DNA of 64,000 nucleotides. Origin: Eledone cirrhosa (Eukaryota). The stretch spans positions 69,750,001 to 69,814,000 of the forward strand of contig OZ024740.1 of NCBI GenBank assembly GCA_964016885.1. Direction: 5' to 3'. Made by a program: the position numbers and the translations under genes. Within the stretch, counting starts at the first letter, position 1; every line of letters starts with the position of its first letter. The notes under the pieces are model-generated. The model saw nothing but the letters and a program-made list of their open reading frames with translations, made no database searches and was not told the DNA's origin. Positions 22,103 to 53,647 of this stretch are shown here, piece after piece.

Positions 22103-22108
<6 letters not shown>

Positions 22109-22500
22109 GGAAAAAATGAAACGAAATTTCATCTCTCATTCTTAGTACGGCTGTTACTTAAATATACGTATGTATACGTACATACATATATGTATACAGA
22201 CGTACAGTAGTATGTATAGATATATACATACATGCACATATATATATATATGCACGTATGGATTTACCGAACAGGAAGGTATACGGTGCTGACGATAGCT
22301 AATAAGCTTGACACTAGTACATAGTTCCTTTATCAGTGTTGAACAAAAGGGCAACGATGGTTGCTAAACACTGTACGGCTTAATTCGGGATGTTCGGTAA
22401 ATCCATACGTACATATATATATATATGTGTGCATGTATGTATATATATACATACATCTGTACGTCTGTATGCATATATGTATGTACGTATACATACTTAT
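22103..22500 (+). mobile_element. Dispersed, partly inverted copy of the 442-bp hammerhead element
   Basis: 22103-22272 is the reverse complement of the unit's 3' part; 22278-22500 is forward and contains CGGTG CTGACGA TAGCTAATAAGCTT GACA CTAG TA CAT. Confidence 0.9.
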
Positions 22501-22780
22501 ATTACATATATATATATATATATATATTTGGATTTTAGTCTTCAAATTTATTATTATTACTATATATGTATATATATATATATATATATTCACCTGAAAA
22601 TCAGTTGAAGAAAACGGGTATAGATCTATATATGTTCTTAACTTAATATATTGCAATATATAATATTGCAATATATCTTGCAATATTTTCATATATTAAG
22701 TTAATTTTTAATATGTTACCAACGTAACTGTGTGTGTTTACACTCTTTCCAAATTATCCCCTGTAATTGTTTGATGTGTT

Positions 22781-24433: not shown

Positions 24434-25032
24434 ATTATTTTAAAGTAGAGGGTCGGACGCCATGCTTTGACGTATAAAGTTACGGCCCTTGCCATTCTGG
24501 GTTCAAATCCCGTCGAGGTTAACTTTGCCTTTCATCCTTACGGGGTCGATAAAATAAAGTACCAGTAATACACTGGGATAATTGCTGGCCTTTTGCCTAT
24601 TGTAGAAACAATTATTTTAAAGTGGATTGGCGGTGGATTGGCAGTATCGGTAGAGGTCGGACGCCATGCTTTGCAACAAAGAGTTACAGCTCTTTATGGT
24701 CTGAGTTCAAGTCCCGCCGAGGTTAAACTTTGCCTTTCATCCTTACGGGGTCGATAAAATAAAGTACCAGTAATACACTGGTTTAACTGGGTTAATTGCT
24801 GGCCTTGTGCCAAAAGTAGAAACAATTATTTTAAAGTGGATTGGCAGAATTGGTAGAGCTTCAGACACCATGCTTTGCATCATAGAGTTGTGGCCTTTTA
24901 TGTTCTGAGTTCAAATCCTGCCAAGGTTAACTTTGCCTTTTATCCTTACGGGGTCGATAAAATAAAGTACCAGTAATGCACTGGGATAATTGCTGGCCTT
25001 GTGCCAAAAGTAGAAACAATTATTTTAAAAGT
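24434..25032 (+). mobile_element. Three tandem tRNA-SINE copies (Meta-like)
   Basis: Each copy has a B box and CATCCTTACGGGGTCGATAAAATAAAGTACCAG; ATTATTTTAAAGT recurs at every junction. Confidence 0.9.
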
Positions 25033-25262
25033 AAAATAGAAATAACACATTGTATGATATACTTAACATTGGATACTGACAAATACCTAGAGAGGATAGA
25101 CATAGCTGGAATATGTTCGATACATGGTTGATCTAAGGCTAATGAACTAAGCACAACAGCATCAGCAATGGTGAGGGCTTTATTTAATTGCTTAAACTGC
25201 TAAAACTAGTGGCTCAAATCCCATCTTACAGTTTTAGGGAGGTTTTTTAACGGTAAGATAGA

Positions 25263-25437
25263 TAACTGTTTCTACTTTAGGCACAAGGCCAGCAATTACC
25301 CAGTGCATTACTGATACTTTATTTTATCGACCCCGTAAGGATGAAAGGCAAAGTCAACCTCGTCGGGATTTGAACTCAGATCGTAAAGGGACGTAACTAT
25401 GCTGGAAAGCATGGTGTCTGACCCTCTACCGATACTA
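25263..25437 (-). mobile_element. tRNA-SINE (Meta-like)
   Basis: Reverse complement of the family consensus; TSD-like TAAGATAGATAAC / TAAGATTGATAAC. Confidence 0.85.
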
Positions 25438-26219
25438 AGATTGATAACGTGTTTGTGTTCTCTCCATATAGGAAATGGTGAGGATTGTCACGGCTAAAAT
25501 TCTTTTCATCAAATTTCTGCTCGATCATAACTGACCTAGAGCTAAATAACAATAATATGATGAGCCAATGAGCGAGCTTTTATGAAGTATCTTGCTCTGT
25601 TATAATTAGGAGCCGAATTTCCTTCAACCACAACTACACATTGGATAATGTAGTGGTGGCTTATTTGTATAGCAATAACATCCAGATGACCTAATGTTAA
25701 ACAAGAACACTCACTAAAGAAAACAACATAAAAAAGTGAACTAGATACGATAATACGATTGCTTCCATGAAGTTGATAAACTACAGGAAAACTTTAGACT
25801 GTAACAATGGTACGAGTTATTTCGTAATGGAACCATGAATCCACTTTCTAAAACTATGGAAACCATAGTTATATTTGACAAACATTTCCAACTATAATTA
25901 TTTGAACTGAACATAAAATAGAACAAAAATATGTTAGAGAGAATTTATTCACCTGAAAGGAAGAGCATTTTTGTTATTAAATGTTATTGGAATATCTTAA
26001 GAAATGCTGGGGTTCATCAGAGCCCATTTTTGGATAACACTTCTCTCACCATATCTTTCTGAATTGAAGTACTCTATATTTGCGATTTGAAAATCCTTCT
26101 AATTTGCAAACAATGCTTTCTCATTACCATATATAAATAGATTTAATACTGTATTTCAAAATTACACTAATGAGATCAAATAATAACAATATATATATAT
26201 ATAAACTTGAAATATATTC

Positions 26220-27580
26220 TCAGGCGATGGCTTGACAGTATCTGTAAAAGTTTGTACAAAATGCCTCGCAGAATATTTTATGTTTCTTAACAATCTGAGT
26301 ACAAATCTTACCGATGTTAACTTTGCCTTTCAGCTTTCCGCGGCCGATGAAATAAGCTACCAATCAAATGCTGAAGCTGGTTTGATTGACATTCTTCCGC
26401 CGAAATTGTTTTTCTTTTGTGGAAATTAGAAATCTTATTATTAATAGATGGATTAGGGCGGTGAATTGGCAGTATCGGTAGAGGGTCGGACGCCATGCTT
26501 TGACGCATAGAGTTACGGCCCTTGCAGTTCTGAGTTCAAATCCCGCTGAGGTCAATTTTGCCTTTCATCCTTACGGGGTCGATAAAATAAAGTACCAGTA
26601 ATGTACTGGGTAATTGCTTGTCTTGTGCCAATAGTAGAAACAATTATTATTAATAGATGGATGAGGGCGGTGGATTGGCAGCATCGGTAGAGCTTCGAAC
26701 ACCATGCTTTGCAGCATAGAGTTACGGCTCTTTATGATCTGAGTTCAAATCCCGCCGAGGTTAACTTTGCCTTTCGTCCTTACAGAGTCGATAAAATAAA
26801 GTACCAGTAACGTACTGGGACGATTTAATCGACTTTCCCCTCCCCCCAATTTACTGGCCTTGTGCTTATAGAAGAAACAATTATTATTAATAGATGGATG
26901 AGTGCGGTAGATTGGCATCATCGGTAGAGCTTCGAACACCATACTTTTCAGAATAGAGTTACGTCCCTTTACAATCTGATTTCAAATCTTGCCGAGGTTT
27001 GGTTTGTCTTTCATTCTTACGGGGGCGATAAAATAAAGCATCATTAATGCACTGGGTCGATACTAATCAACTTTCTCCTCCCCAAAATTGATAGCCTTGT
27101 GCCTATAGTAGAAATCATTATTAATAGATGGTGGGTTGACAGAATCGTTAGAGCATCAGATAAATGCGTAGTATTACTTGCTTCGGCTCTTTACGTTTTG
27201 AGTTTAAATCTCACCGAGGTCAACTTTGTCTTTCGTCTGTTCTGGGTCGACAAATTAAAATATCAGTCAAGTACCGGTATCGATTTAATAGAATTTCCCC
27301 CAACTGTCGCCGAGATTATTGGCTTTGTGCTGAAATTAGAAACCCTTATTGTTTTGTTTTAGTTCCAGCTCTTTAACATACTGAGTTCAAATCTCACCGA
27401 GTTTAGCTTTGCTTTTCATTCTTACGAGGTCGATAAAATTAAAGTAGCACCGGGTTCAATTTAATCGACTTTCCCTCATTCGACCATAATTGTTAGCCCT
27501 GTGCCTAAAATAGAAACAATTATTACATGGAATCGTTTTGCTTTTGTTCCATCTCTTAACGTTCTGAGTTCAAATCCATC
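26220..27580 (+). mobile_element. Tandem array of about six tRNA-SINE copies of different ages
   Basis: Well-preserved copies start near 26457, 26666 and 26905; more decayed ones near 26220, 27130 and 27370; linker TTATTAATAGATGG recurs four times. Confidence 0.85.
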
Positions 27581-46859: not shown

Positions 46860-47175
46860 ATTGTTATACTATGGGAGGGTTATGTTACCAATAAAAACAC
46901 ACGCACATTTGGTTTTCACTTCAACTTATTATAAATTTTCTGGCTAGTTGTTTGGTTTGATAACCGGAATGTTGTTTATGTATTGTCAAAAATGTTTCGT
47001 CACACATTCTGTGTTCTCCTCAGTGACTAGGTTTTTATTTTGTATGACTCTCCTTTGTTCTGTACTACACCATCTTGTTTTTATTGGCAACATGACTCTC
47101 TCAGATTATAAAAATATCTGTTTCAACACACGTTTTCAGATAAGGATTCTCGAAAAACAAATTAAGTTACTAATT
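46860..47175. mobile_element. ORF-less inverted pseudo-LTR pair related to the PLE at 51805-53647, with a degenerate hammerhead on the minus strand (46985-47027)
   Basis: Shares TTATTGGCAACATGAC...CAACACACG with that element in both orientations; GTCA CTGAGGA ...GTGTGAC GAAA ... TGAC. Confidence 0.8.
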
Positions 47176-48528
<1,353 letters not shown>

Positions 48529-48941
48529 CTCCGGGAGAGATGACCCCTTAGACTTTGTCAAGGCAGAATTCTAGGAGAAGGAAAACTCTGATATAACACC
48601 TGCAACCCTGATGGTATCCAATGATGTTGAATTGTTCTTCTTTTTGGTAAATATCATCTTGGTTAAGAGAGTGGGACTGGCTTTGTGCAGTGCCTTTGCT
48701 CACTATAAAAGCTTCACAGCACAGGCATTGCTTTATATCTGGAGATCTCTCTGCAGTTGTCGTCACATGGTACCATGGGCCCAGCACTATGTGTCAATAA
48801 TTGTCACAGGTGTAGTGTTTGTACCAGAGTTTTCAAGTCGCTGGCTGGACTAAAAAGTCACATTCGTTCAGCGCATTGGTAGGGGTTCTCCTACATGGAT
48901 ATAAAGTAGTGGCCGTACTCGAAAACGAGTGGGCAGCCACC
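48529..48941 (+). mobile_element. 5'-truncated copy of the RTE-derived non-autonomous element
   Basis: Colinear with 21660-22070 and has the same 3' terminus before (TA)n. Confidence 0.85.
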
Positions 48942-48972
<31 letters not shown>

Positions 48973-49014
48973 AATATATGTATATATATATATGTATATA
49001 TATATATACATATG

Positions 49015-49065
<51 letters not shown>

Positions 49066-49555
49066 GTGTATATATATATATGTATATATATATGTATATA
49101 TATATGTATATATATATGTATATATATATGAATATATATATATATATATGTATATATATATGTATATATATATAATTATATATATATACATCTAAACACT
49201 GTACGGCGTAATACAGGCTGTTTGTTTGTTTACAAACGAACAAACCGAGCATTATAATAAATGTTCGGTAAACTGATACGTGCATATATATATATGTGTG
49301 CCTGTATGTATATATATACATGCTACTGTACGTCTGTATACGTATATGTATGTACGTATACATACATACTTACATTTAAGTAAGTGCCGTACTAAGAGTG
49401 AGAAATGAAATTTCGTTTCATTCTATTCCATTTATCGTTTTCGGTGCGCCTGGCCGACTGAACTCACTCGATATGCAAATTAGGCTGCTCAGCCGTTAAT
49501 TTTCATAAGGAAAGTATATACTTTCGGACGTTCCACCATCTGGCAGATGGGTATA

Positions 49556-49596
49556 CGGTGCTGACGATAGCTAATAAGCTTGAAACTAGTACATCG
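49556..49596 (+). ncRNA. Minimal type I hammerhead ribozyme, unit 1
   Basis: Stem I CGGTG/CATCG; core CTGACGA; stem II AGCT-aata-AGCT; GAAA; palindromic stem III ACTAGT; GUA cleavage triplet. Confidence 0.85.
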
Positions 49597-49997
49597 TTCC
49601 TGTGTCAGTGTTGAACAAAAAGGTGACGTGGTTGCCTAAACACTGTACGGCGTAATACAGGCTGTTTGTTTGTTTACAAACGAACAAACCGAGCATTATA
49701 AAAAATGTTCGGTAAACTGATACGTGCATATATGTATGTGTGACTGTATGTATATATATACATGCTACTGTACGTCTGTATACATATATGTATGTACGTA
49801 TACATACATACTTACATTTAAGTAAGTGCCGTGCTAAGAGTGAGAAATGAAATTTCGTTTCATTCTATTCCATTTATCGTTTTCGGTGCGCCTGGCCGAC
49901 TGAACTCACTCGATATGCAAATTAGGCTGCTCAGCCGTTAATTTTCATAAGGAAAGTATATACTTTCGGACGTTCCACCATCTGGCAGATGGGTATA

Positions 49998-50038
49998 CGG
50001 TGCTGACGATAGCTAATAAGCTTGAAACTAGTACATCG
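49998..50038 (+). ncRNA. Minimal type I hammerhead ribozyme, unit 2
   Basis: Identical to unit 1. Confidence 0.85.
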
Positions 50039-50439
50039 TTCCTGTGTCAGTGTTGAACAAAAAGGTGACGTGGTTGCCTAAACACCGTACGGCGTAATAC
50101 AGGCTGTTTGTTTGTTTACAAACGAACAAACCGAGCATTATAATAAATGTTCGGTAAACTGATACGTGCATATATATATGTGTGCCTGTATTCATATATA
50201 TACATGCTACTGTACGTCTGTATACATATATGTATGTACGTATACATACGTACTTACATTTAAGTAAGTGCCGTTCTAAGAGTGAGAAATGAAATTTCGT
50301 TTCATTCTATTCCATTTATCGTTTTCGGTGCGCCTGGCCGACTGAACTCACTCGATATGCAAATTAGGCTGCTCAGCCGTTAATTTTCATAAGGAAAGTA
50401 TATACTTTCGGACGTTCCACCATCTGGCAGATGGGTATA

Positions 50440-50480
50440 CGGTGCTGACGATAGCTAATAAGCTTGAAACTAGTACATCG
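50440..50480 (+). ncRNA. Minimal type I hammerhead ribozyme, unit 3
   Basis: Identical to unit 1. Confidence 0.85.
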
Positions 50481-50760
50481 TTCCTGTGTCAGTGTTGAAC
50501 AAAAAGGTGACGTGGTTGCCTAAACACTGTACGGCGTAATACAGGCTGTTTGTTTATTTACAAACGAACAAACCGAACATTATAATAAATGTTCGGTAAA
50601 CTGATACGTGCATATATGTATGTGTGCCTGTATGTATATATATACATGCTACTGTACGTCTGTATAGATATATGTATGTACGTATACATACATTCTTACA
50701 TTTAAGTAAGTGCCGTACTAAGAGTGAGAAATGAAATTTCGTTTCATTCTATTCCATTTA

Positions 50761-51803
<1,043 letters not shown>

Positions 51804-51847
51804 TTCGTTTCTGAATTTGTTTAGCAAGATTCTTTATCTGAAATCGT

Positions 51848-53134
51848 GTGTTGAAACCGATATTGTTATACTTTGGGAGGGTCATGTTGCCAATAAGAAA
51901 CACACGCACCAGTTGCATTCACTTTTTGTTAAGTTCTAGTAGACTTAAACAAAAACTTAATGAACAATTAGAAGACAGCTTAACCCTGATAATGTACTCC
52001 CGCTACGTAGATGATATAAACATCGTAGTTAAGACACCCCCACTAAAGAACAGTCAGGAACTAGAGAAAAACACAATGGAAAGCATCCAGCAAATAGCAA
52101 ACTCCATCCACCAGAGCATTAGAGTTACTATAGACTACCCAAGTAGACACCCCAACCATCGATTACCTGTACTAGACACAGAGCTCTGGTTAGATACAAT
52201 TAACAACCAAAAACAAATCCTCCATTCCCATTATGCCAAACCCATGACTTCCAAACATCTGATCCACCGAAACTCGGCCATTTCGGACCATACCAAAATC
52301 AACATACTGATTGCGGATTTGGTACGGGTGATGAGAAATGTGTCCCGCATGTGCAACCCCGAAGAACTAGAGAGACACATACAACACTTCATCCACCGTA
52401 TGCAGTTCTCTGGCTACAATCAGAGAGATAGAATCAGAGTGTATAAAGGAGCCAGAACCAAATGGGAAAAAATGGTAAATAATGACATAAATGGGACCTG
52501 CCCCTTGTATAGGAGCAAATTTTGGAATAGAATAGAAAGAACTAAGAACAATGCCAATAGAATAAACTCATGGTATGATAGCAATAAATACCAGAGTGTA
52601 ATGTTCATCAATACAACCCCTAGAGGCGAACTAGCCTACAAATTTAGAAGGGCCCTAAAGAAACATAATCTCAATATTAAGATAGTAGAAAGACCTGGTA
52701 CCTCCGTAAAAACACTTATTAGCAAGACATACCCGTTCCAAAGACCCTCATGTATAGATAAGAAATGTATAACCTGTAAAATAAGCCCCCATATTAACTG
52801 TAAAACTAGAAATGTAGTATATAGCATAAGATGTACTGAAGGACAATGTAGAAATAAAAATATAGCGTACATAGGTGAGACAGCTCGTAGTATAGGGGAA
52901 CGAATAAATGAACACTGGCGAGACCTCCAAGATAATAAAGAATCATCTGTGCTCTACCAACATGCTAAGATAGAACACAGGGGTAAATTAGAGAGCATAG
53001 AAATAAAAATAGAATCCACACACAAGAAAGACGCAATGTTTAGGCAAATTACAGAGGCAGTAAGCATAAAAGAATTAAAACCAAAATTAAATAGAAAATA
53101 TGAGTGGAACAGCAACATCACAACTTACAATTAA
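51848..53134 (+). CDS. PLE polyprotein C-terminal part: RT (YVDD), thumb, Cys linker and GIY-YIG endonuclease; the first ~27 codons come from the inverted pLTR
   Basis: [56 protein letters not shown]; uninterrupted frame. Confidence 0.9.
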
Positions 53135-53439
53135 GGACAAAATGAAAACACACACACACATAGAACAAACAACTTACAATTGAAAACACACACAAAATGA
53201 AAACACACACAAGACAAAATGAAAACACACACACACATAGAACAAACAACCAACCAACAATAAATAAATAAATAAACAAACAAATAGAAAAATATAAATA
53301 GAAAAATAGAAAAATGAACACAAACACACACAGACACCCGGATGTGGCGCATGCGCAAACTGAGCACGCAGCCCACACACAAACAAAATGGCGTAGGATA
53401 GAAGAAAGGAAAGGCACAGAAACGAAGAAAGAAATCCCC

Positions 53440-53484
53440 AGTCACTGAAGAGGTCACAGAGTGTGTGACGAAAGAACTATGACT
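53440..53484 (+). ncRNA. Minimal type I hammerhead in the PLE pseudo-LTR
   Basis: AGTCA CTGAAGA g GTCACA-gagtg-TGTGAC GAAA GAAC TA TGACT. Confidence 0.8.
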
Positions 53485-53647
53485 ATATATATATAAACAA
53501 CTATCTGGTTGTGGAACCAACCAACCAACCAACCAGAAATTTATAAATTTGTAAATTTATAAATATATAATAAATTAAATTGAAGTGAAAGCAACTGGTG
53601 CGTGTGTTTCTTATTGGCAACATGACCCTCCCAAAGTATAACAATAT

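Follow-up and report, generated by a model that had tools for sequence, protein, structure and literature searches.

The tandem repeat at positions 49192–50760 of the window, by which we mean the whole 64,000-nt stretch of Eledone cirrhosa DNA analysed here, is best explained as a non-LTR retrozyme whose RNA is predicted to cut itself into unit circles that are copied repeatedly by the enzyme of a Penelope-like element (PLE), a reading to which we give a probability of roughly 0.7. What is new relative to earlier work is the anatomy of the insertions: they end at two sites within the unit, and the two sites are used in opposite fashion on the two arms of an inverted insertion. The value of the family lies in this mechanistic footprint more than in the ribozyme repeat.

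The window copy lies on the plus strand and is a single 5′-truncated arm of 3.55 head-to-tail units (1569 bp, GC 0.377), defined both by TRF, which reports a period of 442 with 3.5 copies and 97% matches at 49192–50761, and by comparison of the units, which differ pairwise at 5–10 of 241–442 aligned bases. The units follow one another without an internal region or any LTR-like organisation, the longest ATG frame is 40/57 aa and no protein-coding frame in the array goes beyond 57 aa; TRF and the frame list thus agree with the sequence-only reading, which had described about 3.5 near-identical 442-bp units with no ORF. Both flanks are (TA)n, with target tracts at 48942–49188 (5′ junction) and 50761–51801 (3′ junction). 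Three variants common to all units of the window seemed private to it, and are in fact lineage variants that also occur in subfamily E. The window holds a second family member at 22103–22507, a head-to-head insertion with a damaged ribozyme core, which also shows an internal deletion and a mutated GAAA. Other repeats of the window include the 3′ end of an abundant LINE-like element at 48526–48941, with a C2H2-like motif and a (TATG)n/(TA)n tail, which is found near many retrozyme loci; a diverged PLE end with a tail at 47100–47175, where the long TA tract begins on its left side; and a 204–237-bp SINE-like repeat in tandem copies at 24495–27131. The miRNA matches that Rfam returned for the window are TA-rich noise.

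Each complete unit carries the same type I hammerhead motif on the plus strand, as had been claimed, with starts at 49561, 50003 and 50445 and GUA ends at 49591, 50033 and 50475. With their full stems the three motifs span 49549–49601, 49991–50043 and 50433–50485, the predicted cuts fall after the three GUA ends, and the cut-to-cut intervals define two predicted 442-nt monomers, 49592–50033 (from motif positions and folding) and 50034–50475. The core letters are those of the canonical hammerhead. In helix I a UAU/U internal loop separates six pairs from three others, helix II has four pairs over a U·U at 10.1/11.1, and helix III is a single pair with a palindromic tetraloop; the U·U and the ACTAGT word on which the sequence-only reading had remarked are both present. 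Through the palindrome, two motifs can pair with each other over 6 bp (−4.8 kcal/mol). The active fold lies 2.6 kcal/mol above the minimum-energy fold when helices I and II are considered, and the double hammerhead in cis lies 11.3 kcal/mol above it. Folded as a circle, the monomer is more stable than 40 shuffled sequences (z −6.6), with a z of −5.4 against shuffles for the linear form. The local hairpins that had been listed are present: six of them recur as exact strings in 2–4 units, the GTATACGTA arm has its exact form in a single unit, and the CCATCTGGCAGATGG hairpin, though present in the window, is lineage-specific and not conserved in subfamilies A–C.

An Rfam search for the hammerhead type I, which had been proposed as a check, gave no match at the gathering score or up to E = 10, and because of this the ribozyme call rests on core sequence and covariation, with which the structure of the first motif was also assigned. 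In 70 loci picked by an anchor outside the ribozyme, and hence regardless of its state, the 12 core positions hold 26 non-majority letters among 1,033, compared with 265 of 6,494 and 588 of 7,176 for flanking sequence. Intact cores number 69 of 83 in these loci, and 77 of 83 motifs keep the U·U; an analysis covering long arrays found 114 of 135 cores intact. In a table of 10 hand-picked rows from the 442-bp family and an unrelated 310-bp family, described below, 158 of 160 cells are paired and 10 of 16 pairs show a two-sided change, with covariation in each helix of the ribozyme; most two-sided changes come from that one comparison of families. Ribozyme identity between subfamilies A and B (0/43 columns) and over four subfamilies (4/43) is biased by the choice of loci. 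Two features should weaken the ribozyme, the U·U and the short palindromic helix III; both have axolotl precedents, so the class is a known one, and activity of the 442-family ribozyme is predicted from its sequence. A search for further families that share the helix III word returned mostly mutants of the 442 family, and L213, L218 and L220, considered as separate families, proved to be chance matches or inversion junctions.

Outside the ribozyme, positions 312–360 of the unit (counted from the first base after the cut) are nearly as conserved as the ribozyme itself. This block contains the word ATGCAAAT, found in the window at 49473–49480 and in the repeats, which we considered as part of an snRNA-type promoter like that of newt satellite 2. 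This candidate gained no support: 16 of 17 distinct U1/U2 promoters in the same genome lack the word, a proximal-element match was not found in the unit, and no promoter was identified. The tandem U1/U2 genes at L293–L316 share a different set of upstream words, AATTA (∼−90), TCAGT (∼−57) and a TATA-like word (∼−31), which together make a candidate snRNA promoter of the lineage.

The family is large and dispersed, as the sequence-only reading had expected, with thousands of copies found by both exact and degenerate searches. In the 3.0-Gb genome the exact 41-nt ribozyme has 975 matches, an exact 31-nt anchor outside the ribozyme 4,137 and a degenerate ribozyme pattern 25,739, with 0 for the controls in each case, and from these three match lists loci were sampled along C1. 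They fall into subfamilies of ∼442 (A), 429 (B), 422 (C) and 456–538 bp (E), the last varying in length through an internal TA tract, which are mutually 84–93% alike and span 420–540 bp overall; an older type carries C·A at 10.1/11.1. Array sizes range from dimers up to long multimers, and C and E include arrays with <1% divergence between units. A contig from a second organism, out of a sequencing run of unstated kind, covers the full unit with 21 substitutions, just one of them in the ribozyme (loop II). Tandem, low-GC, ORF-less and dispersed units with a hammerhead motif each bear out the assignment to retrozymes, and animal non-LTR retrozymes are a known class that the 442-bp family fits. 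Within this class it is a new family by comparison with the literature and Rfam. A search of mainly open literature found no paper on cephalopod retrozymes and none on tails or inversions in retrozyme insertions, and the available text of PMC13282606 mentions neither hammerhead nor retrozyme. With >25,000 ribozyme motifs the family is a sizeable repeat component of which we found no description.

The evidence for how the family moves comes from the ends of its insertions, whose positions are numbered from the base that follows the predicted cut. Of 131 arms in the 70 anchor-sampled loci, 54 end at a site we call SHORT, ∼219–229 nt after the cut, 52 at a site we call LONG, ∼279–286 nt after it, and 25 are unclassified; the spacing of the two sites is 55–56 nt. 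In the window copy, which has no inverted arm, the SHORT site (50698–50704, plus strand, ∼223–229 nt after the cut), a putative first internal start for reverse transcriptase (RT), is read through, and a 56-nt ‘tail’ (50705–50760, plus strand) continues to the LONG site, a putative second RT start and the 3′-end of the insertion. The same 70 loci contain 42 head-to-head (inverted) junctions, 13 of them with an unclassified end, and among the 29 classified twins 26 are discordant, pairing one SHORT with one LONG end (p = 1.5e-5). In 110 other loci, where a separate motif-based classification yielded 37 pairs, from which 2 non-contiguous and 5 unclassified pairs were removed, 28 of 30 twins are discordant (27 of 29 with the duplicated L246 counted once). 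The second family member in the window likewise has one LONG and one SHORT end.

Since 79 of the 106 classified arms run on into TA, targeting of (TA)n, as the sequence-only reading had it, agrees with the genome at large; these targets mask any target-site duplication, and short TA-like microhomology is seen at the start sites. The predicted cleavage site has little to do with where arms stop, as 68 of the 106 cross it, 37 are longer than a unit and 2 end no more than 5 nt from it. We infer from these sequences that insertions end at two internal RT start sites and not at the cleavage site, a point overlooked earlier, and the non-integer arrays noted before are borne out by the genome. PLE copies are described as 5′-truncated, often with an inverted 5′ arm, and with a tail usually on one end (Craig 2021; PMC3846280), and this tail signature has been described as unique to PLEs. 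In experiments with purified anole PLE protein, RT starts internally, at a pair of sites by which the tail is delimited, and the protein, a predicted dimer, cleaves and extends both strands (PMC11167929). The ends of the 442 family match this signature, with two end sites, a tail on one arm only and inverted truncated arms, so the element was likely copied by a PLE enzyme; PLE-type mobilisation, which had been suggested for the window array, is well supported by the insertion sequences and we hold it to be very probable.

A candidate for the enzyme's source lies next to the array. At 51802–53645 (plus strand) is a separate 5′-truncated PLE insertion, which holds the 3′ part of the RT, a GIY-YIG domain, a pseudo-LTR (pLTR) with a minimal hammerhead at 53445–53479, and an inverted 5′ piece with a 60-nt tail. 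Its family is abundant and young, with intact frames of 1,274–1,294 aa that carry an N-rich insert (L111–L116); the frame was identified from motifs, Atlas and structure, and Pfam gave no match for it. The two ends of this PLE lie 60 nt apart and are discordant in all 5 full-length loci with an inverted partner, with one exception (L082) among shorter loci. It appears Neptune-like from its linker and from the TA bias described in Craig 2021. Probing 137 loci with one PLE protein found no retrozyme arm attached to PLE coding sequence, the nearest lying 389 bp away, and the unit has no significant similarity to the neighbouring pLTR (15 of 200 shuffles did as well as the best match); for these reasons the neighbouring PLE is only a candidate helper. 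A TA-targeting Neptune-like PLE, for instance of this family, is the probable helper. The tails of the two retrozyme families differ in length (56 nt in the 442 family, ∼26–35 nt in the 310 family), which calls for more than one helper or for a spacing set by the RNA. A related PLE family with a different tail is seen in L013, L022 and L033, and further hammerhead-like motifs of other PLE-type families occur in L113 (minus strand, 9704) and L114 (minus strand, 2603 and 8575).

The 310-bp family is a replicate in the same genome, where it has 2,580 exact ribozyme motifs and is very young (seen at L232:5435–7001, G000 C1:5544272 and elsewhere). It has the same design of U·U and palindromic helix III with other stems and another palindrome, and its arrays reach 27 near-identical units. 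Its ends fall near 130–139 and 160–168, and among 14 distinct loci all 7 classified twins are discordant (L284 could not be classified).

What kind of RNA was copied is best seen in young arrays, which are uniform within a locus and different between loci. The three units of L235 are identical (3/3), all five units of L232 share a common insertion (5/5) and all seven units over both arms of L233 share a common variant (7/7); in the 310-bp family, locus variants are fixed on both arms in 16/16, 6/6, 6/6 and 5/5 units. This accords with the monomer-like template of the sequence-only reading, as a variant fixed in all units of a near-identical array implies passage through one monomer, such as would occur in rolling RT on a circle. 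The small arrays L071 and L029 are star-like, with 121 singleton versus 18 shared variants and 53 versus 7, respectively. Twin arms of the 442 family share alleles in 504 of 559 common polymorphic comparisons versus 51% at random, which is compatible with one RNA and also with subfamilies active at different times. Among older insertions, a triplet test found that 109 of the 285 odd letters lay in the other lap versus one third expected (p = 0.09, from non-independent counts), and a three-way rare-allele test gave 3 versus 3. A linear cleaved monomer copied once is ruled out by the 68 of 106 arms that cross the cut; this crossing alone is no proof of a circle, because ribozyme cleavage is dispensable for the anole PLE and unprocessed RNA is its main substrate (PMC11167929). 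Circles have been proposed for PLEs (PMC4209133), and given the sequences of young arrays a circular template is likely here.

Some growth of the family took place in DNA, with signs of duplication in a 136-unit array (C2), a 48-unit array (C1) and L075. The two satellites (G000 C2:382983657–383043846 and C1:70.055–70.077 Mb) contain higher-order repeats and retain PLE-type ends or an inversion. The consensus of the C2 array is subfamily A, and we considered it as a master source of the family; its 15 variants at frequencies of 10–44% each occur in 0–3 of 54–133 dispersed pieces, and the array is better seen as a product. L245 alternates two units 4% apart, and two-unit periodicity within single arms, seen in L245, L047 and L232, may reflect dimer circles or DNA duplication.

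Taken together, these observations suggest the following mechanism. A read-through transcript would cleave itself, probably just as a double hammerhead formed via the ACUAGU palindrome or with protein help, and a host ligase would close the monomers, and sometimes dimers, into circles. A dimeric PLE protein would then nick both strands of a (TA)n target, and cDNA would start at SHORT on one strand and at LONG on the other, from the same RNA and aided by TA-like microhomology. Each RT would roll past the ligated junction until it falls off, leaving non-integer arms head to head, and a few insertions would later expand to long satellites at the DNA level. That a single circular ribozyme RNA is copied simultaneously by two PLE RTs from different internal sites is a step towards which we only lean. 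If true, it would provide direct genomic evidence that PLEs transpose retrozymes in trans from a circular template, with no need of homology to a pLTR, and that the two protomers of the PLE enzyme act asymmetrically.

The insertion could also be PLE-made from another template, a linear multimer transcribed from an array already in the genome and left uncleaved, with the ribozyme cutting rarely or serving some other role. When all units on the two arms of near-identical arrays carry the same new variant, however, a one-monomer bottleneck is required, the common variants of the 136-unit array are almost missing from dispersed copies, and the catalytic core has been kept over the subfamilies and in a second family, all of which makes a multimer template unlikely, though not negligible.

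Two further explanations place the origin of the unit elsewhere. The unit might be what truncation left of an autonomous PLE, its pseudo-LTR, later amplified in place, as modelled for Xenopus, where 21 of 57 retrozyme families match PLE termini (bioRxiv 2026.07.22.740005); long arrays in this genome did expand as DNA, and our probing used a single PLE protein. Yet the dispersed insertions each have PLE-type ends of their own, which indicates that the unit moves as such, its copies stand head to tail with no ORF between them, no arm in 137 loci has PLE coding sequence closer than 389 bp, and no homology to the pLTR of the abundant PLE was found. Local amplification of a pLTR, which the sequence-only reading had itself raised against its proposal, is for these reasons very improbable, while an ancient pLTR origin of the unit may still apply. 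A viroid-like RNA that replicates from RNA to RNA and is occasionally reverse transcribed into the genome would suit the high structure of the unit and the many short-lived haplotypes among young insertions, but no hammerhead core was found on the minus strand, the predicted monomer fold is branched and not rod-like, and the genome itself supplies tens of thousands of copies, enough to act as sources, so that we give this explanation hardly any weight. A retrozyme copied by a PLE enzyme, with a circle as the likely template, is the reading we retain.

Compared with EN+ PLEs (Neptune-type; PAc), the 442 family shares the two internal RT start sites with a tail (PMC11167929, PMC3846280, Craig 2021), the head-to-head inverted arm, 5′ truncation, (TA)n or AT-rich targets, and a hammerhead upstream of the start sites. 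It differs from them in having no ORF and no detectable pLTR homology, in a tail of 55–56 nt versus 30–40 nt (60 nt in the neighbouring PLE), and in the TA-like microhomology at its start sites, unlike PAc in vitro (PMC11167929). The discordance between the two arms also places a constraint on PLE insertion itself.

The ribozyme is closest to those of the axolotl, one of the animals, with coral and mussel, in which metazoan non-LTR retrozymes were studied (Cervera and de la Pena 2020, PMC7229834). The single-pair helix III with a palindromic tetraloop is that of HHR_Amex1 and newt satellite 2, and the U·U at the base of helix II is that of HHR_Amex2 (PMC7229834); the axolotl ribozymes carry one weakening feature each, whereas the 442 and 310 families combine both. 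Each feature alone leaves 6% and 22% monomer cleavage in axolotl, and Amex1 and Amex2 work better as dimers (PMC7229834), while 8 of 9 Xenopus retrozyme dimers showed no cleavage in vitro (Li, Clavereau, Pollet, bioRxiv 10.64898/2026.07.22.740005).

The Xenopus retrozymes are likewise non-autonomous dependants of PLEs, and they too combine short copies scattered over the genome with a few long arrays. The evidence there is co-occurrence and pLTR homology, and the model one of local amplification, whereas short arrays of the 442 family appear to be born multi-unit and no parent pLTR was found; the words ‘tail’ and ‘inversion’ are absent from the available text of that preprint. The retrozymes of PMC7229834, whose main text includes no cephalopod or octopus, have the same short, low-GC tandem units with one type I hammerhead each and no ORF, the same range from dimers to multimers and the same co-occurrence with PLEs, and 442 bp is at the upper end of their 150–450 bp. 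Expression and circles were shown for them and are predicted for the 442 family. Answers to which enzyme mobilises animal retrozymes, and to whether it copies the circle, have so far rested on co-occurrence and terminal homology. To these the insertion ends add a map of the putative RT starts, and the genome offers an intact PLE as candidate helper, families of very recent origin and a replicate family, which together make the question directly testable with the published in vitro PLE assay. Where PMC7229834 proposed mobilisation by PLEs from co-occurrence, the ends of the 442 family carry the PLE signature itself.
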